DNA of 64,000 bases from an uncultured bacterium (GTDB lineage Bacteria > Patescibacteriota > Minisyncoccia > Phycocordibacterales > PALSA-1337): contig CAIMDG010000002.1 of assembly GCA_903839725.1 (NCBI GenBank), forward strand, positions 135,739 through 199,738, in the 5' to 3' direction. Shown piece by piece: positions 8,899-63,936 of the stretch. The notes beneath the pieces are model-generated. The model made no database searches, had not been told where the DNA came from, and worked only from the letters and a program-made list of their open reading frames with translations. The stretch's first letter is position 1. Each line of letters opens with the position of its first letter. Position numbers and translations under genes: made by a program.

Positions 8899-8957
8899 AA
8901 AGAAAAGACCCTCACCGTAGAAAGCATGAGGGTTGCTTTTCTACGAGAGGGTCGGTT
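8899..8957 (-). terminator. Intrinsic terminator (minus strand) after the 8968..9783 gene; copy 1 of an about 60 bp repeat
   Basis: On the minus strand: gaccctctcgtagaaaagcaaccctcatgctttctacggtgagggtc then ttttcttt. About 85% identical to 9923-9981. Confidence 0.7.
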
Positions 8958-8967
8958 TGAAATTCGA

Positions 8968-9783
8968 TCACTTCTTGACCACAACTTCTGATTCAGGAAT
9001 GGTCGTCATATTTACTGGATCGAGGTGATTTGCGAGGCTAACGATTTTCTCGAGCATGACCGTTTTCGCCGGAGAAGTAATGTCCTTGCGACCAAAATGA
9101 TGCACAAGCATGAAACGAAGTGCTCGAGCAAACTCTTGTCTGCATTTAGGATGCTGCTCCTCAACAATGGTCGCCAACGTATGAAGCAGACCGAAGAATT
9201 TTTTATAAACAAATTCCTCGCGATTATTTGGTGTAAAATGAGCATCAAAATCAGTGAATAAGGTGGCTCGCAGTCCTTCACCAGGTTCCCCTGTTTCAAG
9301 ATGCACACCACCATTCGACTGAAAATCGATAATCAATCCACGCCTACCAGCAATCTGCTGTTCAACGTTTCCAAACATCCACGCTGCTGCAAAGCATTTC
9401 GTGAACAATTCTTCAAGGCGTTGAATGAAGAAAAACCGTAGCGGATTAGTGGGACCGTCAACACATTGCCCCTGAAGAGGTGTGAGCTCCATGGCAATCG
9501 ATAATGCCCACCAACCGGTCTTCAAACGAGCTTCAATAAACTTCACCGTTTGCGGATCATCTGGATTTTCTTTATTCATGCGATTCCAAAGCGCATTAAG
9601 ATGATGTCTGGTGTGCAACATTTTTTTCCGCAAATCGATGAGATACTTGTCGAGCGGCTGCCCGTGGAATGTGCACCTTGCTGTGCCGGGACCCATACCA
9701 TAAACAGCAAATCCGCATTGTTGAACGTGAAGAGTTATAAACTCCTTTTTTTCTATTTTTTCATTAATCATATGAAACTCCAT
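8968..9783 (-). CDS. Hypothetical protein (271 aa) flanked by two copies of an about 60 bp terminator repeat
   Basis: Long ORF with coding-like composition and no family recognised by eye. See repeats at 8899-8957 and 9923-9981. Confidence 0.55.
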   Translation of the reverse strand: MEFHMINEKIEKKEFITLHVQQCGFAVYGMGPGTARCTFHGQPLDKYLIDLRKKMLHTRHHLNALWNRMNKENPDDPQTVKFIEARLKTGWWALSIAMELTPLQGQCVDGPTNPLRFFFIQRLEELFTKCFAAAWMFGNVEQQIAGRRGLIIDFQSNGGVHLETGEPGEGLRATLFTDFDAHFTPNNREEFVYKKFFGLLHTLATIVEEQHPKCRQEFARALRFMLVHHFGRKDITSPAKTVMLEKIVSLANHLDPVNMTTIPESEVVVKK

Positions 9784-9922: not shown

Positions 9923-9981
9923 AAAGAAAAGACCCTCACCATAGAGAGCATGAGGATTGCTTTTCTACGAGAGGGTCGGCT
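9923..9981 (-). terminator. Intrinsic terminator copy 2 (paralogous repeat), upstream of the 8968..9783 gene
   Basis: aaagaaaagaccctcaccatagagagcatgaggattgcttttctacgagagggtcggcttt. On the minus strand the hairpin is followed by ttttcttttatt. Confidence 0.65.
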
Positions 9982-10212
9982 TTAAGGTAATTTGTTGGTA
10001 ACGATTGCCGTCAATTGGGAGTGAACATACCCATTTGTGGAACATCCGCTTTGCAACCATTGAACAGTGGCGGCCGGATGAGTTTCAAGGTAACTGTTAA
10101 CTTGATTTTGCAATTTTGTTAACGCGTCATCACTGTCGATCAATTCCGAAAACAATTTAAACATATTTTTCAATTCTGGGTTTAGGTTGATACTGCCTAA
10201 AATCCTCAACAA
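9982..10212 (-). CDS. Small hypothetical ORF (76 aa), uncertain
   Basis: ORF only. Its start overlaps a 13 bp-stem nested palindrome at 10188-10238. Confidence 0.2.
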   Translation of the reverse strand: MLRILGSINLNPELKNMFKLFSELIDSDDALTKLQNQVNSYLETHPAATVQWLQSGCSTNGYVHSQLTAIVTNKLP

Positions 10213-10467
10213 TTGAGGGCTTTAGGCAGTATCAAAATAACCATACTTACTGTCGCGAAATATAGCACAATAAAATATATATGTCAAGATGTAGTGGAGA
10301 ATGGTGAGCCAAAGTTGGAACCAACTGTATCCTTGGGTATTTGAGAGCTCTGAGGCGATTGTGGGGGTTAGGGGGTATGAAAAGAGACTTAGTTTTGCTT
10401 GATAGAGTGCCCTGTTGGTATCACAAGATGGGAGTGGACTATCTATATGATGATACCATGGAAATTT

Positions 10468-10767: not shown

Positions 10768-10791
10768 GAAATATATTGTAACATTATTCTG

Positions 10792-11180
10792 TGGAGATGC
10801 TGGGAATCGAACCCAGGTGCAATTGATATTCATCGAACGACTCTACAGCGATATCAGACCTTGTTCCACGAAGTGGATTTAATGATTGTGATCCAGAAAG
10901 TCTGAAAAACACACAATCACGATCTCATTCCGCCCGAAGACGGATTCAAGAACTGAAGTGAGAAGCTTCAATCCCCTACATCCAGATTATTACGCCAACA
11001 TCATAGTCAGGATCCCCATGAAGTAACGGCTGTCGTTAAACGAGAGCGAATGCGAAGTCCTTTTGACCAAAATATGGTGAAACGGTTGATTTTGCATTTA
11101 GAATTTCCATCAGATTTACGAGTTAATGGTGCTCGCGCTGCACGAACGAGAATGGTCAACTGTCGAAGCCGATCATCCCC
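10792..11180 (-). ncRNA. ssrA: tmRNA (SsrA), about 389 nt, CCA not encoded
   Basis: The 5' end GGGGATGATCGGCTTCGACAG matches the tmRNA consensus GGGGnUGAUnCnGGnUUCGAC. The 3' end is GCACCTGGGTTCGATTCCCAGCATCTCCA, with a T-arm and a 7 bp acceptor pairing with the 5' GGGGATG (one G-U). The gene lies directly beside smpB. A candidate tag reading frame starts at a GCA about 86 nt from the 5' end: GCAAAATCAACCGTTTCACCATATTTTGGTCAAAAGGACTTCGCATTCGCTCTCGTTTAA gives AKSTVSPYFGQKDFAFALV*. Confidence 0.8.
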
Positions 11181-15852: not shown

Positions 15853-15893
15853 TGCTACATTATACGTGAAGAGGTGCAATAAGACCAAAGACA

Positions 15894-16017
15894 ATCACCC
15901 CAGACAACACGGCCCCCTGAAGACTCCGTTACGAACGAGTATAAATGCCTAAAGAATCACATAATGAAACGATATCCCGCTGGGAAGTCTTCAGGGGGCC
16001 GTGTTGTCTGGGGTGAT
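15894..16017. repeat. Long-palindrome element (full-core type): 32-33 bp perfect inverted-repeat arms around a conserved core
   Basis: Arms atcaccccagacaacacggccccctgaagact (15894-15925) and agtcttcagggggccgtgttgtctggggtgat. The core ccgttacgaacgagtataaatgcctaaagaatcacataatgaaacgatatcccgctggga is related to the cores at 56423, 58796, 61435 and 63810. Confidence 0.85.
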
Positions 16018-16038
16018 TGAAAACCGAACAGACAGAAA

Positions 16039-16162
16039 GGCAGAGAGGAATATGGGCGTGGTGGGAGACTGCCCGGAGGGATATCGTCTTTTCATTTTGT
16101 ACTTTAGGCACAACTCCTCGTACGTAACGACGTCTCCAACCACGCCCATATTCCTCTCCGCC
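16039..16162. repeat. Long-palindrome element (full-core type, opposite orientation), 31 bp arms with 2 mismatches
   Basis: Arms ggcagagaggaatatgggcgtggtgggagac and gtctccaaccacgcccatattcctctccgcc. The core cccggagggatatcgtcttttcattttgtactttaggcacaactcctcgtacgtaacg is the reverse complement of the family core. Confidence 0.8.
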
Positions 16163-16425
16163 TGAAAAATGTGGAAACAAAAAACACCTCAATGAGATGT
16201 GTTTTGTTGGTTGCAAGAGTAATGTACCTGGTAGTCCAGGTGGGTGATCTCACACAGAGCACCAAGGTGCCTGCGAATTTGATCTCCCTAAAAATGTGTT
16301 TTGTAGGATTTTACTCCTGCAGCCTGAATATATTATATGCCTCGAAAAAAAGGAGTACAAGAGCACAACATAGTTGCGACACTTTTCTTGATTTCGAGCA
16401 AAGTTGACAATGGAACGATATAGCG

Positions 16426-19013: not shown

Positions 19014-19022
19014 AGTAAAACA

Positions 19023-24703: not shown

Positions 24704-24889
24704 TTACCATGAAGACTTCTTGATACCTGGAATTGCGCCTTCATTGGCGAATTCACGGAAACAAATACGACAGAGATCAAAATCTCTCATATAAGAACGC
24801 TTGCGACCGCAACGGAAACAACGACGAACTACACGCGACTTAAACTTCGGTGTCTTTTGTGATCTTACTATTACTGATGTTTTCGCCAT
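24704..24889 (-). CDS. rpsN: 30S ribosomal protein S14 (zinc-binding type Z, 61 aa)
   Basis: [46 protein letters not shown] with the CxxC...CxxC pattern. Confidence 0.88.
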
Positions 24890-25037
24890 AATGATTATTT
24901 GTCCAAAGAAATGAGGATTGGTTAGCTATGCCCTTTCGGGTTGTGCTTCCAATCGCTTGTTCTAAGATAACCTTGTTTTATTAAGGTATTCAAGATACTA
25001 GCAGATACATTGAATAGAGTCAACTAATTTTTATTCA

Positions 25038-25160
25038 GGAACAAGAGAGGTGGTGTGTACTCACTTTCTGCAGAATTTTGGAAACGCTTGTGACGAACTA
25101 ATATGCCACAGTGTCTCTAAAATTCTGCAGAAAGTGAGTACACACCACCTCTCTTGTTCC
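25038..25160. repeat. Long-palindrome element (short-core type): 42 bp perfect arms and a 39 nt loop, between rplE and rpsN
   Basis: Arms ggaacaagagaggtggtgtgtactcactttctgcagaatttt and the exact reverse complement at 25119-25160. The loop ggaaacgcttgtgacgaactaatatgccacagtgtctct is related to the 5' part of the family core and to the 54262 copy (shared ...agtgtctct end). Confidence 0.85.
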
Positions 25161-25182
25161 GATAACTATTATGCACGTATAC

Positions 25183-25209
25183 AAAAAATCACCCTCTCGG
25201 GTGATTTTT
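25183..25209 (-). terminator. Intrinsic terminator immediately after rplE, inside the spc r-protein cluster
   Basis: On the minus strand: aaaaatcaccc gaga gggtgatttttt, a 7 bp stem flanked by A and T runs. Confidence 0.65.
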
Positions 25210-25216
25210 CTTTGTA

Positions 25217-25771
25217 TTATTTCTTAGCTTCTTCTCTCTTCAAAGGCATTCCAAGATATTCGAGGAAAGCGAGAGTATTCTTTTTATCATTTGAAGTTGT
25301 AACGATAGTGATAGCGAAACCAAACACATCCTTCAAATCTTCATCAGCTGTTTCAGGGAAAATAGTGTGTTCCTTGATGCCCATTGTGTAGTTACCCATA
25401 GCATCAACTGAAGTTCGTGAGAGACCACGGAAGTCCTTTGTGCGAGGAAGTGCAACATTGATGAGGCGATCCAAGAATTCACACATACGCTTGCCACGGA
25501 GAGTGATCTGGTATCCAACAGCATCACCTTGGCGTGTCTTGAATGTAGCGATGGCCTTCTTTGTTACACGTGTTGCAGGCTTCTGACCGGTGATCTTTGC
25601 GAGACGATCTGCAATGAGTTCAATCTTCTTTTTATCGCGAACTGAACCAAAGCCGTTTGAAACAACAACCTTGAGCAAACGAGGAGTCTGCATAGCATTC
25701 TTCAAGCCCAAAGGAGCCTTGAGAGTAGCGTAAGAATTCTTATTGAGTTCGTATACTGTTGTGTGTTTCAT
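25217..25771 (-). CDS. rplE: 50S ribosomal protein L5
   Basis: MKHTTVYELNKNSYATLKAPLGLKNAMQTPRLLKVVVSNG is L5. Confidence 0.92.
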   Translation of the reverse strand: MKHTTVYELNKNSYATLKAPLGLKNAMQTPRLLKVVVSNGFGSVRDKKKIELIADRLAKITGQKPATRVTKKAIATFKTRQGDAVGYQITLRGKRMCEFLDRLINVALPRTKDFRGLSRTSVDAMGNYTMGIKEHTIFPETADEDLKDVFGFAITIVTTSNDKKNTLAFLEYLGMPLKREEAKK

Positions 25772-28983: not shown

Positions 28984-30300
28984 TTAGCCGAGGTGAATGA
29001 TGTGCTCATCTCCTTCGAGACCGAGATGGCGCGCATTCAAATCATCATACGTTTCCGCACGACAGATTCGGCGAACATTGCCGAGACCGTCGAGGAGTAA
29101 TTCCTGCGGACGACAACGGCCGTTGTAATTGAAACCCATGGCCGAGCCGTGCGCACCAGTATCGTGGGTGATAAAGAGATCCCCTTCACGAGGATCCGGC
29201 AGCATGCCCTTTTTGAGCACCAGATCACAGCCTTCGCAGATGGGGCCGGCACCAGAGACTTCAATAATTGGACGACTACCTTCGCCGATCAGAAAACCAT
29301 CTTGCTCCAACACGGTGCAGTGGTGATAGGCTTTGGAATACATACCAACACGCATGAGCGCGGGCATGGCAACTTGGAGACCGGCGAATTCGATATATTT
29401 GCGATATCGATTGATCACGCGGTTGACCAATACTCCATGGGGGCCAGTTACGAAACGGCCACTTTCCATGAAGAGAGACGGCACAAAACCGTTAAGTTCA
29501 AAAAATTGAACTGCTGATTCCTTGCACTCAGTGGCGAAGGCCTCGAGGTCGAATGGTGTATCACCGGGGCGATACGGAATACCCAAACCGCCACCAACAT
29601 TGACGAATTCGAGTTCGATACCGAGCTCGTCAAGCAAACGCTTCGCAATATCGAGAAGCAACTTATAGGTCGCGACCAAATTCGTATAATCGAGGTTATT
29701 CGAACACACCATCGTGTGTAAACCGAAACGTGTTGCGCCGGCCTGATAGGCTTGGCGATACGCTTCGACGATCAGTTCGATCGGAACACCATACTTGGAA
29801 TCAGGGTCAGCCATGCTGCGCATATCCTTCGAACCGTCAGCCGAGGAAACGCCCGGATGTAACCGAAAAGAAATGAGATTCGGAAATGGGCCGAGAGCTT
29901 GAACTTTTTTGATGTATTCAATTCCGTCGAGGTTGAGGATGCAGCCACCACAAGAACGCAGCGCTTCGATCAACTCCTCTTCCGAGGTGTCGTTCGAAGT
30001 GAACATGATATCCTCCGGTCGGGCTCCGGCGTAGCGAGCCAAACGGAGTTCAGGAATGGAGCTGCAGTCGAAGCCGCAGTCTTCAGATTTGATGATGTCC
30101 ATGATTGCCGGCTTGGGAAGCGCCTTGACCGCGTAGAACTCCTTGAAGTCCATCTGGCGGAAGCTGAATGCATTCTTCAAGGTGCGGAGTGTATCCCGGA
30201 TTCCTGGCTCATAGTAAATATGGTAGGGCGGAGCGAATTTTTTGTTGATCGCAGCGAGCTTTGGAAAAAGCGCCTGCATGAATTCTTGACTCATTGGCAT
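28984..30300 (-). CDS. PLP-dependent fold-III decarboxylase (Orn/DAP/Arg decarboxylase family; LysA-like, carboxynorspermidine decarboxylase not excluded)
   Basis: YAVKA (PLP lysine), VNVGGGLGIPY, ESGRFV, GPICEGCD and HDTGAHGSAMGFNYNGR motifs. 438 aa. Markedly GC-richer than the flanking r-protein genes. Confidence 0.6.
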   Translation of the reverse strand: MPMSQEFMQALFPKLAAINKKFAPPYHIYYEPGIRDTLRTLKNAFSFRQMDFKEFYAVKALPKPAIMDIIKSEDCGFDCSSIPELRLARYAGARPEDIMFTSNDTSEEELIEALRSCGGCILNLDGIEYIKKVQALGPFPNLISFRLHPGVSSADGSKDMRSMADPDSKYGVPIELIVEAYRQAYQAGATRFGLHTMVCSNNLDYTNLVATYKLLLDIAKRLLDELGIELEFVNVGGGLGIPYRPGDTPFDLEAFATECKESAVQFFELNGFVPSLFMESGRFVTGPHGVLVNRVINRYRKYIEFAGLQVAMPALMRVGMYSKAYHHCTVLEQDGFLIGEGSRPIIEVSGAGPICEGCDLVLKKGMLPDPREGDLFITHDTGAHGSAMGFNYNGRCRPQELLLDGLGNVRRICRAETYDDLNARHLGLEGDEHIIHLG

Positions 30301-30520
30301 AATTTTTTGTATTCAATTGTTGTAGCGATACTACTGTTTTTTGACACATATCGCCGATACTGTGTCTGAACGAAGACTACTGATAATACTGAATACTGTC
30401 AAGAAACGCCCGAAATCTGGACCCGTACTATTCTTGACACAAACTCACTCAAAAGGTAGAAATACCCCAGGACTGCCGTATTGTTACGGTAGTAGAAAAC
30501 TCAAAACCACATACTGACAC

Positions 30521-31024
30521 ATGAATACCCCTAAAAATACATTGATACGCACAGCGACCCTCGAAGTCTTTGAAATGTTCGGCCCGTTATTCGAGGACCG
30601 TTTCATTACCCAAGTTGAAGGGCGTGTGGCGGCAGTCATCACCGTTCTCAACCCGCACCACACGCGTGAAAACAGCCACCAACCGATGGTGCTCGAAAGC
30701 ATCATCCTCGGTAATAAAGATGTTTCCAAATGGCAACACCCCTACAATGAATACGCTGAAGCGAAGGCCAAGGCTGCCTGGCGGTCTGCGCGATCAAATC
30801 ACCTCATATTCGCCGGCGCTCCGCATCTGATCGAATCTGACGATTTCAAATTCGCCGGTGGCGTCTATGATGACGGTATCGTGGTTGCCACGAGCGGCCT
30901 CAAATGCTGGGAAGATGATCTGTTTGTCTCCCAAGTCGTCGCCTCGGCCATCAAAGCACACGTAATCAAGACGGCAAATCCTGTGATCAATGAGCCGAAG
31001 AAGGCTGATTTGTTTTTCCGGTAA
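30521..31024 (+). CDS. Hypothetical protein (167 aa), GC-rich
   Basis: ORF with coding-like composition and no recognised family. Confidence 0.45.
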   Translation: MNTPKNTLIRTATLEVFEMFGPLFEDRFITQVEGRVAAVITVLNPHHTRENSHQPMVLESIILGNKDVSKWQHPYNEYAEAKAKAAWRSARSNHLIFAGAPHLIESDDFKFAGGVYDDGIVVATSGLKCWEDDLFVSQVVASAIKAHVIKTANPVINEPKKADLFFR

Positions 31025-31151
31025 TCGTCATGATTACCATTGCACCGTTCCCTCTCGTAGGGAACGGTTTTTTATTTCATCATTCTTGGACAAAAAATAT
31101 ATATGAGAAACGCCGCCCAGTTGAAGCCGGGCGGCGTGCGATAGTGAACTA

Positions 31152-32357
31152 TTATTCGTAGGAAACTTTGGCGGCGGCGAAACCTGCCTCAATTTCCTCG
31201 ATCTGGGCACCAACATCCGTGGCACAAATGGCATACCGAATCCACTTGTCGAACGGGATACCGCAGAGGCCGGTATTATCCGTCATGATGTTGTTAAACT
31301 CCTCACCATTGGCGATGTCCTGACCAAATGCCTTCGTTGGGGCATCGAACAGTAAGAAGAAGCCCGCTTCCGGTTTGACGGCGAGGCGCATGCCCCGACG
31401 TTTCAAAACTGACGCGACGAGATCGAGACGTTCGGCATACACCTGATGAACTTCCTCGATACGATCGCGGTGCTTTTCGAAGACATCGAGCACGCCTGCC
31501 GCCGCAAAAGCGACGAAGCCACTGTCGAGATTACCCTTGATCTGGGTAACGTCCGCGATGAATTCGGGTGAACCCGCCATTGCCCCGACGCGCCAGCCAG
31601 TAAAGTTACCAGCCTTCGAGGCAGAGAATGCTTCGATCCAATTCAGATCGCGGAATTCAAGAGCCACATCAGTCAACGTTACCGACTCGGGGCTGTTACT
31701 CAAGATGTGATATGCCCCGTCGTTAACAAGACGGACACCACGATCAGAACAGAAACGACACAGATTCGTGAGCCAATCACGCTTGGCAATGATGCCGGTC
31801 GGATTTTCCGGGAAGTTTAAGCAAATCATGTCGCCTTCGGTGATACCGATAAGGCTCTCCGGAGAAAACAGAAATCCCTTCTTGGGATCCAGCGGTAGCT
31901 CCACCTGTTGGATGCCCTTGATGGCACCGCAGACATATGCGGGCGTCGGATAACCAGGATTCGTCATGGTATAAACTCGCGACAATGAACCGGGACGTTC
32001 CCAGGTGCCGAGAGATTCCACCAACACCTGCAACATCGGTTTGATGCCCGGAATCGGTAGGTAGCTGATGACGTCCGCAGCATAATCCTTCAAATCACGC
32101 ACGACATGACACTGCACAAAACGACGCGCGAAGTCGGGGACACCCGGCGACCCGTTGTCCTGGTATTCATGCATCGCTTCACTGTCAGACATGACTGCGG
32201 CGGCGGCGGCCATGCGGGCCTCCAAAATGGCAGGTCCAGCTGGCTGGCCGACGGTGAGGTTGATGATTTTCTTGCCGGCAGCCATAGCTTCGGCGCGCTT
32301 GGACTTCGAACGTTGAAACACGTTCGGGGGAGCACTGGATAGGAGTCTTTCTCTCAT
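31152..32357 (-). CDS. Class I/II PLP aminotransferase (LL-diaminopimelate aminotransferase DapL-like; tentative)
   Basis: Aminotransferase fold with SASKAGNFTGWRVG (PLP-lysine motif of the SxSKxxGxxGxRxG type). About 400 aa. GC-rich. The start may be the internal MAAGKK (32285). Confidence 0.6.
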   Translation of the reverse strand: MRERLLSSAPPNVFQRSKSKRAEAMAAGKKIINLTVGQPAGPAILEARMAAAAAVMSDSEAMHEYQDNGSPGVPDFARRFVQCHVVRDLKDYAADVISYLPIPGIKPMLQVLVESLGTWERPGSLSRVYTMTNPGYPTPAYVCGAIKGIQQVELPLDPKKGFLFSPESLIGITEGDMICLNFPENPTGIIAKRDWLTNLCRFCSDRGVRLVNDGAYHILSNSPESVTLTDVALEFRDLNWIEAFSASKAGNFTGWRVGAMAGSPEFIADVTQIKGNLDSGFVAFAAAGVLDVFEKHRDRIEEVHQVYAERLDLVASVLKRRGMRLAVKPEAGFFLLFDAPTKAFGQDIANGEEFNNIMTDNTGLCGIPFDKWIRYAICATDVGAQIEEIEAGFAAAKVSYE

Positions 32358-52697: not shown

Positions 52698-53094
52698 TTA
52701 AATCTCAAATTTTAGTAATCTTACTATTTTTCTTCATTGTAATTATACTCGCTCCCAATATATTTGATATCTCAACAGTCTCCTTAAGAATCGTTTCTGC
52801 TATGTCTTTTTGAAGCTTTCCTGTATCACGAGCCAATCCTATCCATAATTTAGACTCATTTGCAGACTTTAAACTATACGTGTAGAAATTGATGTAATCT
52901 TTTCTAGAACTTGCACCTTTAGCTTCAACAACATTCGCAACAACCGATGTTCCACTTCTTATCAACTGTCTTGCAATCACCTGACCTGAAATATCTTTAG
53001 AGAACTTATCGACGCATCTCACAATCTCAATGGCATACTTGTATAATCTTGCATCAATTTCCTTCTTCGTCATTTTTGAGATTTGAGATTTAAT
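52698..53094 (-). mobile_element. Putative mobile cassette: four-helix-bundle gene bounded by 14 bp perfect terminal inverted repeats
   Basis: attaaatctcaaat at 52698-52711 and its exact reverse complement atttgagatttaat at 53081-53094. The left repeat includes the gene's stop codon and the right repeat lies 8 nt upstream of its ATG. Extra partial tandem copies of tttgagattt occur at 53075-53091. The cassette interrupts the conserved rpsG-fusA junction. Confidence 0.55.
52705..53073 (-). CDS. Four-helix-bundle protein (TIGR02436-like; 23S rRNA intervening-sequence protein family)
   Basis: MTKKEIDARLYKYAIEIVRCVDKFSKDISGQVIARQLIRSGTSVVANVVEAKGASSRKDYINFYTYSLKSANESKLWI matches the four-helix-bundle family pattern (SxxANIAEG-like SGTSVVANVVEA, FxxFLxIAxGSxxE-like). 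Confidence 0.75.
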   Translation of the reverse strand: MTKKEIDARLYKYAIEIVRCVDKFSKDISGQVIARQLIRSGTSVVANVVEAKGASSRKDYINFYTYSLKSANESKLWIGLARDTGKLQKDIAETILKETVEISNILGASIITMKKNSKITKI

Positions 53095-54008: not shown

Positions 54009-54046
54009 GAATAAAATTAGTTTACAGTAAAAAATGAAAAGTGATT
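54009..54046 (-). promoter_or_regulatory. Conserved leader motif copy C (5' leader of rpsL)
   Basis: aataaaattagtttacagtaaaaaatgaaaagtgatta shares the core TTAGTTTACAGT(G/A)AAAAATGAAAAGT with copies A and B. Confidence 0.65.
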
Positions 54047-54261
54047 AGTTGGACGCACAGCAGCGCGCATACAACTTTGCACTTTACACTTCTAACTTTT
54101 AACTGTTATGTGGCAGTCCTGAATTATTCACCGCTTTGGGTTTGAGATATACCCTGACGATTACTCATTCTTGCCGTAATAATGTACTGGTCCAAAGTTT
54201 CCTTTAGATAGTGGAGATACCATATCATATAGATAGAGGATGTACAAGATATGAGAGTACG

Positions 54262-54375
54262 ACAGGAGGAGGGGCATTACTCATTTTCCGCACAAGTTTA
54301 GAGACACTTACATTACACAGCGTACCGCAGTGTTTACAAACTTGTGCGGAAAATGAGTAATGTCCCTCCTCCTGT
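54262..54375. repeat. Long-palindrome element (short-core type): 38 bp arms (1 mismatch) and a 38 nt loop, upstream of the rpsL leader
   Basis: Arms acaggaggaggggcattactcattttccgcacaagttt and aaacttgtgcggaaaatgagtaatgtccctcctcctgt. The loop gagacacttacattacacagcgtaccgcagtgtttac is related, as its reverse complement, to the 25038 copy's loop. Confidence 0.85.
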
Positions 54376-54401
54376 TGTGCGTATTGATTTAAATCAAGCC
54401 T

Positions 54402-56422: not shown

Positions 56423-56556
56423 GTGAAGACCGGCACACAACACTAGTCCAATGAAACATCCGTTATGTTCTAATGTAAGTGCCTGAAGTACACTATTGAA
56501 AAAAGATATCCCGCTGGGAATTGTTTCATCGGACTAGTGTGATATGCCGGTCTTAC
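56423..56556. repeat. Long-palindrome element (full-core type) between divergent genes (metallo-beta-lactamase-like protein and sodA); 35 bp arms with 5 mismatches
   Basis: Arms gtgaagaccggcacacaacactagtccaatgaaaca and tgtttcatcggactagtgtgatatgccggtcttac. Core aacatccgttatgttctaatgtaagtgcctgaagtacactattgaaaaaagatatcccgctgggaat. Confidence 0.85.
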
Positions 56557-58795: not shown

Positions 58796-58930
58796 CCCAA
58801 GCAGCCGCACACATAGTATCCTGCCAAAACATCCGTAACGTTCTAATATAAGGGCCTAAAGTACAATATTAAAAGACGATATCCCGCTGGGAATTGTTTC
58901 GTCAGGATACTATGTGTGCGGCTGCTTGGG
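58796..58930. repeat. Long-palindrome element (full-core type); 28 bp perfect arms
   Basis: Arms cccaagcagccgcacacatagtatcctg and caggatactatgtgtgcggctgcttggg. Core ccaaaacatccgtaacgttctaatataagggcctaaagtacaatattaaaagacgatatcccgctgggaattgtttcgt. Confidence 0.9.
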
Positions 58931-61434: not shown

Positions 61435-61561
61435 AAAGAAGTTCCCACAACAAGCCTGACGAAACAATTCCCAGCGGGATATCGTCTCATTACTTAATAC
61501 TTCAGGCACTAATAAGAGGACGTCACAGATGTTTCGTCAGGCTTGTTGTGGGAACTTCTTG
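61435..61561. repeat. Long-palindrome element (full-core type, reverse orientation) between divergent recJ and the DnaA-domain-IV-like gene; 32 bp perfect arms
   Basis: Arms aagaagttcccacaacaagcctgacgaaaca and tgtttcgtcaggcttgttgtgggaacttctt. Core attcccagcgggatatcgtctcattacttaatacttcaggcactaataagaggacgtcacaga. Confidence 0.9.
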
Positions 61562-61631
61562 AAGATTACTAGATTTGACACAATCTATTTACAATGGTAT
61601 TTTCAAATAAACACTTTTACAAAGGATTTAT

Positions 61632-62066
61632 ATGGATATACATAGACGACTTAGACTATTGGAGCACAAAGTTCGCTTTCTCGAATCATTGATGCTACCA
61701 AGAACAAACATCAAACGCACAATCACCCGCAACAGTCCCGAGCCTTTCGAAATCATACTCAATATCGTTTCAAGAATATGTGACGTCGAAAGGAAACGTA
61801 TTCTGAAGAAAGGTCGCGGCAAACAAGATGCATCATGGGCACGACAGTTGATTATGTATTTTTGCATGGAATATAAACTTGGTTCGAGCAATTATATCGC
61901 CGAATGCCTCAATCGAGATGATCACACAACTGTTTTGCATGGCAATAAACAAGTTAAGGCTATTGCGTCGCTACCCGGCAAAGACAAAGATCAATTCGAA
62001 GCATGCAAACTGGAAATTGATACGGCCTTCAACCAAAGAGCTGGCATGCTGGTTGTCGCATCGTAA
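61632..62066 (+). CDS. Small HTH protein resembling DnaA C-terminal domain IV
   Basis: ARQLIMYFCMEYKLGSSNYIAECLNRDDHTTVLHGNKQVK matches the DnaA domain IV pattern A(R)QIAMYLxxELT..S...IG..FGGRDHTTV(L/I)HA. Confidence 0.55.
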   Translation: MDIHRRLRLLEHKVRFLESLMLPRTNIKRTITRNSPEPFEIILNIVSRICDVERKRILKKGRGKQDASWARQLIMYFCMEYKLGSSNYIAECLNRDDHTTVLHGNKQVKAIASLPGKDKDQFEACKLEIDTAFNQRAGMLVVAS

Positions 62067-63809: not shown

Positions 63810-63936
63810 AGGTAACCTACATATCACAGCCTGACGAAACATCCGTAACGTTCTAATATAAGTGCCTAAAGTACAATATTAAAAGACGATATCCCGCTGG
63901 GAATTGTTTCGTCAGGCTGTGATATGTAGGTTACCT
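63810..63936. repeat. Long-palindrome element (full-core type) 24 nt upstream of the pgk start; 32 bp perfect arms
   Basis: Arms aggtaacctacatatcacagcctgacgaaaca and tgtttcgtcaggctgtgatatgtaggttacct. Core tccgtaacgttctaatataagtgcctaaagtacaatattaaaagacgatatcccgctgggaat. Confidence 0.9.

Follow-up and report, generated by a model that had tools for sequence, protein, structure and literature searches.

Miniature inverted-repeat transposable elements (MITEs), among them the Correia elements of Neisseria and the Rickettsia palindromic elements, are ~100–150 bp long, carry inverted repeats, and insert between genes, and RNase III can target the hairpin that a Correia element forms when transcribed. 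Repetitive extragenic palindromes (REPs) occur as inverted doublets, or REPINs, that are mobilized by RAYT/TnpA-REP (PMC3116915, PMC8266576). In the candidate phyla radiation (CPR), the stem-loop tigRNAs of TIGR-Tas systems have variable yet consistently palindromic stems, which are conserved only beside the loop (PMC12045711; bioRxiv 10.64898/2026.09.09.750476). Here, we analyzed a 64-kb stretch of contig CAIMDG010000002.1 (“the window” throughout), which comes from a Candidatus Taylorbacteria-like (Patescibacteria/CPR) genome and carries a long palindrome, hereafter palindrome C, between the ribosomal protein genes rplE and rpsN. We consider it probable, though well short of certain, that C is a degenerate copy with a truncated core, that it belongs to a family of ~125-bp palindromic intergenic repeats specific to this lineage, and that it sits at this junction as a passenger. 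For the family as a whole, the best reading by analogy with described elements is a REPIN/MITE-like selfish or neutral palindromic repeat.

The window contains eight palindromes of this one family, six with a 63-nt center and two, C and D, in which that core is truncated. A full member spans ~125 bp, with the center held between arms of 31–39 bp (31–36 bp in the six copies of the window). The center follows the consensus TCCGTNACG, ~12 nt, TGCCTRAAG, ~14 nt, ACGATATCCCGCTGGGAAT, and its three conserved blocks (CCGTNACG, TGCCTRAAG, and ACGATATCCCNNNGGGAAT) did not vary among copies or strains, whereas the arms and the segments that separate the blocks drift. Only the inner 9–12 bp of the arms, often CCTGACGAAACA, are common to the copies. 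The long-core copies are A (15892–16019, plus strand, with a 34-bp perfect stem), B (16038–16163, minus), E (56426–56554, plus), F (58796–58930, plus), G (61436–61560, minus), and H (63810–63936, plus), which has a 32-bp perfect stem and precedes pgk by 24 nt. All copies are intergenic and lie among housekeeping genes, including an RNase J-like gene, ndk, sodA, comEC, rnhA, recJ, and pgk. At ndk, the gene's terminator (16184–16200) is followed by B, just downstream of it, and then by A before the next gene, giving a layout of gene, terminator, element, next gene.

In 169 kb of related DNA, a covariance model of the long core recovered the long-core copies and nothing else. The center pattern had zero chance matches in shuffles of the window. 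Relatives of the pattern were found in one uncultured metagenome-assembled genome (MAG) and one metagenome only; it had no match in viral contigs, and the elements were absent from phage and plasmid collections. A search of the literature turned up nothing like this palindromic family. Copies A, B, and D recurred in 99.96–100% identical contigs of independent samples (ERZ18631894, ERZ18631664, and ERZ27313197), and the palindromes are therefore not assembly artifacts.

Palindrome C belongs to this family as a short-core copy. Its two 42-nt arms (25038–25079 on the left and 25119–25160 on the right, neither assigned to a strand) are Watson-Crick complementary at 42 of 42 positions, which bears out the 42-bp perfect stem described in an earlier note on this DNA, and six of the next nine positions inward are complementary too. 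Alignment with the long-core copies identified the 39-nt loop (25080–25118, plus strand) as a truncated core that retains the 5′ half of the 63-nt center, reading GAAACGCTTGTGACGAACTAATATGCC compared with GAAACATCCGTAACGTTCTAATATAAGTGCC. As the note had also stated, the GATATCCCGCTGGGAAT half of the core is missing from both C and D, and both share the loop end AGTGTCTCT, which in D lies on the minus strand. The long-core covariance model matched neither of them. Palindrome D (54259–54378, core forward on the minus strand) lies between an M50 peptidase gene and the rpsL promoter and leader. The 38-bp perfect stem attributed to it (54262–54299 paired with 54338–54375) was found to contain one mismatch (G·T on the plus strand, at 54274), with 25 bp as the longest perfect run.

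To follow the family between strains, we set the window against contigs L015, L024, and L029, which represent a sister strain in sample ERZ27300174, as well as contigs L012 and L013. At the D site, L024 has a perfect stem of 39 bp around a 38-nt loop, and the sequence is strongly diverged, with residual similarity. The two loops are identical at 24 of 41 positions, compared with 78–90% identity between long cores. Short-core loops are thus unconserved, and C and D therefore look like derivatives without the functional part. As a separate observation on this region, the ~100 nt before the rpsL start (54009–54110, compared with L024:3400–3500 and L022:3425–3485) are completely different between strains, and the adjacent ~170-nt leader is ~98% identical. 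An 18-bp-stem palindrome upstream of the rpsL start in L022 through L024 is absent in the window.

The junction that hosts C is organized by other signals. S10-spc-alpha clusters of the E. coli/Bacillus type are contiguous, and the operator bound by S8 in E. coli lies at the start of rplE. In the window, the same order is kept on the minus strand, as rplN-rplX-rplE and then rpsN-rpsH-rplF-rplR-rpsE-rplO-secY, but a terminator, a promoter, and a conserved leader part rplE (25217–25771, minus) from rpsN (24704–24889, minus; zinc type, 61 aa). The spacer between the two genes is 327 bp (24890–25216). The best named matches of the L5 protein were Candidatus Taylorbacteria/Patescibacteria MAGs, and a contig from another sample (ERZ1426726) with an identical L5 protein has the same 327-bp gap, compared by length alone.

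A terminator had been proposed directly after rplE, and it was confirmed by both a scan match and a reading of the minus strand: at 25184–25209 (minus), 8 nt past the rplE stop, TCACCC-GAGA-GGGTGA is followed by TTTTTTGT and would end the rplN-rplX-rplE unit. Equivalent terminators of other sequence stand in the same place after rplE in contigs L015, L017, and L019. The scan also found a promoter-like site for the rpsN unit (24995–25023, minus), with TTGACT, a 17-nt spacer, TAGTAT, and a TG extension; it is present in L020 too and was invariant in five aligned relatives. Between this site and rpsN, alignment and a consensus fold over five lineages outlined a conserved leader (24890–24994, minus) with two hairpins, ACCUUAAUAAAACAAGGU and GAUUGGAAGCAC...GCAUAGCUAACCAAUC. 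The promoter and ~100-nt leader were nearly invariant in relatives of 77–97% nucleotide identity. The leader hairpins showed no compensatory changes among the five lineages, so that sequence conservation is what supports them. Because the rplE terminator, the rpsN promoter-like site, and the leader are all conserved, the spc-like cluster very probably comprises two transcription units in this clade, split by terminator and promoter, as the earlier note had supposed.

The leader is of interest in its own right, as it is almost invariant even among lineages that are only ~77% identical overall. Since rpsH is the next gene, it may be a putative autoregulatory operator, and we take the internal-loop pattern of its second hairpin (GAUUGGAAGCAC...GCAUAGCUAACCAAUC) to resemble the S8 site in 16S helix 21. 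The leader had no Rfam match and no covariation.

The proposal that C heads the second unit, or marks its boundary, was not supported. C lies 14 nt upstream of the predicted −35 element and downstream of the rplE terminator, and it is therefore part of neither transcript except by read-through. Moreover, it was absent from every relative in which we examined the same junction. This absence from close relatives is the sequence half of what the note itself had named as refuting its view, the other half being unchanged operon expression. In the sister strain, where the flanks are 95–97% identical, the region matching 25012–25217 of the window is replaced by a different terminator and an open reading frame (ORF) for a 96-aa hydrophobic protein (L015:2724–3014). 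In L017 (~77% identical), terminator and promoter follow within ~30 nt (L017:1296–1326) with nothing between them. In L018 through L020, the junction extends over ~650 bp and holds a 128-aa reverse-strand ORF, MazF/PemK-like by eye only (L020:883–1269, minus). Between the rplE terminator and the rpsN promoter, there is thus a gap that behaves as a safe harbor for insertions, with cargo that differs by lineage, and the family marks such terminator-promoter gaps as harbors of this kind in these compact genomes. Because this gap between conserved signals tolerates extra DNA, C is better seen as a passenger than as the cause of the operon split, which it probably did not bring about. The specific claim made for the hairpin is accordingly reduced to that of an accessory insertion beside a split encoded by the conserved terminator, promoter, and leader.

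One argument for giving C a function of its own is its fold. If rplE read-through transcribed it, the 42-bp duplex could be cut by RNase III to separate or insulate the two units, or it could protect the upstream mRNA at its 3′ end in the manner of a REP element. As RNA, C folds at ~−93 kcal/mol on either strand, with z of about −18 to −19 compared with shuffles, and family members stand at unit boundaries both here and at ndk. RNase III substrates have at least ~20 bp of uninterrupted double-stranded RNA, which C would form if transcribed, according to the fold computation, and a 42-bp duplex exceeds what the enzyme requires. Both the RNase III substrate and the cruciform that the earlier note had envisaged are physically plausible. 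However, little RNA should contain C, given that it lies past a canonical terminator and before the −35, and the relatives examined all lack C while keeping terminator, promoter, and leader. The core is oriented both ways with respect to neighboring genes across the family, G-U pairs are virtually absent, and there is no strand bias, unlike in stems selected as RNA. C does not resemble an intrinsic terminator, which would have a short G+C-rich stem and a U-tract; no T-run follows either arm, and the terminator scan did not call C, while the neighboring hairpin at 25184–25209 does fit. We therefore regard a functional RNA hairpin as unlikely. The only likely effect of C would be on rare read-through RNA, whose 42-bp duplex RNase III could cut, or on DNA structure locally, just upstream of the promoter.

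We also searched these elements for described RNA families. At the gathering threshold, Rfam returned tmRNA only for the whole window and no family for the palindromes, and at E ≤ 10, C and H matched generic microRNA-precursor hairpins only, far below threshold. RNAalifold predicted the outer stem and no internal structure for the center, and covariation likewise supported the long stem but no pairing inside the center. A three-way junction that we drew by hand for the center was unsupported, with 72–82% pairing, scant covariation, and a small hairpin that did not vary.

The arms show how these elements change. In the stems of 17 well-registered elements, 570 of 582 positions were Watson-Crick pairs, and 11 of the 17 were perfect. 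Stems selected for pairing as RNA are expected to accumulate G-U pairs on the transcribed strand. Here, the transition mismatches on the core-forward strand comprised three G·T and six A·C, with no strand bias. In the L029 ortholog of copy A, 10 of 34 arm positions differed in an ungapped alignment (7–8 of 33 with gaps), and every difference was mirrored in the other arm; the ~6–7 arm changes in the L013 ortholog of copy G were also all mirrored. The absence of a G-U strand bias together with mirrored change therefore argues for concerted evolution at the level of DNA rather than for selection on RNA, and the symmetry of the arms as read from their sequences points to a DNA-level process.

The rate of this change appears ordinary. 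Arms diverged by ~9–38% and long cores by 10–18% (A and E) from the sister strain, and the core of G diverged by 22% from the strain represented by L013. At four-fold sites of 11 neighboring genes, 299 of 1271 positions (24%; 6–51% per gene) differed between the window and ERZ27300174. Arm and core divergence thus falls within the four-fold range and is therefore in the neutral range. We had suspected hypermutation or replacement of the arms, as they differed by 20–40% beside flanks that are 95–100% identical, but rejected this idea because four-fold sites are 24% diverged; the flanks, being promoters, leaders, and terminators, are under constraint. What is unusual is that the two arms, although they drift neutrally, do so in concert. 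This makes the family a clean natural example of inverted-repeat arms evolving in concert at a neutral rate.

Quasipalindrome template switching, which makes imperfect inverted repeats perfect, is a documented mutational process (PMC7202029), and compensatory changes have also been documented in REPIN hairpins (PMC3116915). Template switching or gene conversion between arms would account for both arms changing together without any bias at the RNA level (PMC7202029). It is a mutational process and not an element family, and sequence patterns are what suggest that it operates here. The idea of a “self-perfecting palindrome,” whether perfected by template switching or by conversion, becomes testable here in an organism whose repair repertoire is minimal.

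Weak but significant family-wide relationships between the outer arms were also detected. Among 171 pairs, 16 scored at or above the 99th percentile of shuffles, and the arms of C, D, and L008 share the motif AGGNGG-N3–7-TACTCA. This cluster implies that whole hairpins were copied to new sites. On the 5′ side of the core, the arm is rich in A and C (A 131, C 116, T 87, and G 83 in 17 arms), an asymmetry that is tied to core orientation and that fits common descent of the arms. As a side note, the A/C-rich motif of many arms (CACAACA) may bear a loose resemblance to a DnaA box, and beside copy G lies a gene (61632–62066, plus) for a 144-aa protein that consists of a DnaA C-terminal-type helix-turn-helix domain only, with a good promoter match upstream (61575–61603).

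Copies were gained or lost between close strains. In L029, copy B is precisely absent. L015 lacks C, and L029 has an extra 27-bp perfect palindrome between map and adk (L029:5129–5223), with a 41-nt loop that resembles the short-core class; the window has only a ~10-nt spacer there (19014–19022). In such presence/absence polymorphism, with B, C, and the map-adk palindrome each in one strain only and eight copies in 64 kb, the family resembles a MITE. By contrast with MITEs, it has no family-wide conserved terminal inverted repeats, since the outer arms differ among all copies and share weak similarity only, and it shows no target-site duplication; arm-flank similarity was no better than null. 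REP/REPIN elements are a further likeness, being short, non-coding, high-copy, and intergenic, forming a long hairpin at gene or operon boundaries, and differing in copy content between strains. The family also has the compensatory change that maintains the hairpin, together with the intergenic position and high copy number, that characterize REP/REPIN sequences. In a REPIN, however, the arms (REP 16–25-mers) are conserved and the spacer varies, the reverse of the arrangement here, where the center is conserved and the arms vary. The arms here are also far nearer to perfect than those of REPINs (98% Watson-Crick over 27–42 bp), and the 64-kb window contains no RAYT gene (TnpA-REP, HUH Y1). The family is an undescribed palindromic repeat of a CPR genome with an unusual architecture, in which a conserved center is flanked by freely drifting arms.

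The center was also found in both orientations. Relative to its flanks, it was inverted in the orthologs of E (in L024), F (in L012, where the outer arm also differed), and G (in L013), or three of the four long-core orthologous sites. In the E ortholog, a G/A arm mismatch beside the center moved with it, which is what recombination of one arm with the other would produce. This flipping raises the idea of an inverton-like switch, in which the arms mediate inversion of a center that carries an orientation-dependent signal such as a promoter for the neighboring gene, and weak promoter-like matches do occur on the reverse strand of some centers. Yet our search for a promoter inside the center found no consistent site, with matches at 8–9 of 12 positions that fell in AT-rich variable positions only, and the truncated loop of C has no such signal. 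The window contains no invertase gene, and contigs from three to four samples of the same strain were all in one orientation. For site-specific inversion, moreover, a segment of 63 bp, or of 38–39 bp as in C and D, would be very short. An invertible switch is thus very improbable.

The invariance of the center blocks amid drifting arms and intervening segments suggests that some putative factor recognizes them. If so, the center could be a DNA-level host element that binds a nucleoid, replication, or repair factor or a regulator, displayed on a cruciform or hairpin, with C as a decayed or variant site. Besides the three invariant blocks amid neutral drift, this would be consistent with the blocks themselves being small palindromes (CGTNACG, GATATC, and TCCCNNNGGGA), and both orientation independence and stem symmetry at the DNA level fit a DNA site. 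Such a host role is unlikely all the same, as copies come and go between close strains, C and D persist without the best-conserved block, and we identified no candidate binding protein.

The sites from which elements are missing hold a further clue. At the empty site of B in L029, one sequence matches the outer arm of B at 15 of 17 aligned positions (by eye, ~17 of 19 over a slightly longer stretch) and spans the insertion point (shuffle P ~0.004). Exactly at the site of C, L017 has a single arm-like motif, its only non-element occurrence in 203 kb, although the alignment P is ~0.07. Arm-like sequence at empty sites may reflect templating of the arms from the target, or else these “empty” sites may be deletion remnants, and deletion between the short direct repeats AATATG/AAAATG could also yield the pattern in B and L029. 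Because the empty site of B carries a single B-arm-like sequence, we considered a CPR mobile hairpin class that would be the inverse of a REPIN, in which a putative enzyme recognizes the 63-nt center and the arms are rebuilt by copying the target at each insertion. Snap-back synthesis from the inner inverted repeat would be a possible route, and C and D would be relics. Templating from present-day flanks gave no signal above null across 20 elements, however, and the pair formed by the extra palindrome of L029 and the corresponding site in the window showed nothing. We consider this class of element very improbable.

Several observations weigh against a selfish or neutral mobile repeat. The scanned ORFs of the 64-kb window include no transposase, RAYT/HUH enzyme, recombinase, or reverse transcriptase, and since no two copies have identical arms, no recent transposition is documented. 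No direct repeat flanks any copy, no target-site duplication was seen in the filled and empty pairs for B and the L029 map-adk palindrome, and the insertion sites have no conserved target motif. Simple insertion also does not account for the B-arm-like sequence at the L029 empty site, and purifying selection on the center blocks could equally reflect a function for the host. The mobility of the family as such is something that we infer.

With these points in mind, we favor the following account of a REPIN/MITE-like repeat. The family would land in, or survive only in, non-essential gaps between transcription units. Its arms would be homogenized by an intramolecular DNA process, either gene conversion between arms or quasipalindrome-type template switching in replication, and the same arm-to-arm recombination would flip the center. 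The conserved center may serve as a handle for a putative trans-acting factor, whether for the spread of the element or for use by the host. Short-core copies such as C and D would have lost the recognized part and would persist only as self-correcting palindromes.

The resemblance to TIGR-Tas guides remains to be weighed. Variable palindromic stems, conservation adjacent to the loop, and membership in the same bacterial radiation are common to both, and the sharing of only the inner 9–12 bp of the arms recalls the stem-loop tigRNAs of CPR bacteria. As units of this or another RNA-guided system, targets would be set by the variable stems or by the two variable segments of the center, and an effector would attach to the conserved blocks. 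A stem-loop tigRNA has two variable spacers of 8–10 nt, with box C (CNA) and box D (YG) at the borders of each, that lie no more than 15 nt apart inside a palindromic stem (bioRxiv 10.64898/2026.09.09.750476). In seven representative elements, we found no pair of 14-nt intervals of this kind (box C, 9 nt, box D) on either strand. The center is conserved and lacks variable spacers, the copies are dispersed among housekeeping genes rather than arrayed in tandem beside a tas gene, and the units are 125 nt long compared with ~36–54 nt for tigRNAs. Pfam, NCBIfam, and PDB sequence searches found no match to Nop or Tas proteins in the window. Nor did the arms behave as spacers, as no arm had a match elsewhere in ~200 kb of compared DNA and 20–22-mers from three arms had no exact match among the viral contigs of IMG/VR. 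A guide-RNA-like role is thus extremely improbable.

Other features of the window are reported here as observations in their own right. Ribosomal protein genes are interrupted or dispersed at more than one place. Non-ribosomal genes separate rpsS from the rplB side of the S10 cluster (28984–32357, minus), namely a 438-aa ORF that looked like a PLP-dependent decarboxylase by eye and a second gene that Pfam assigned to class I/II aminotransferases. The str operon (rpsL-rpsG-fusA) is 14 kb from tuf-rpsJ, and together with the S10 inserts this indicates that the ribosomal protein super-cluster is fragmented in several places. Between rpsG and fusA, both the window (52705–53073, minus) and L025 carry a gene for a 122-aa four-helix-bundle protein of the 23S-rRNA intervening sequence (IVS) type (PF05635), a family that includes Avd, the accessory protein of diversity-generating retroelements (DGRs); in L022, L023, and L024, the two genes are separated by no more than a short spacer.

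Two further repeats lie elsewhere in the window. A 63-bp direct repeat (8899–8961 and 9923–9985, 92% identical), seen as a secondary BLAST match, brackets an unannotated 271-aa ORF (8968–9783). The tmRNA gene (10789–11180, minus; Rfam 99 bits), which encodes the tag AKSTVSPYFGQKDFAFALV, adjoins smpB, and a 28-bp imperfect palindrome (10182–10240) lies a few hundred bases from it.

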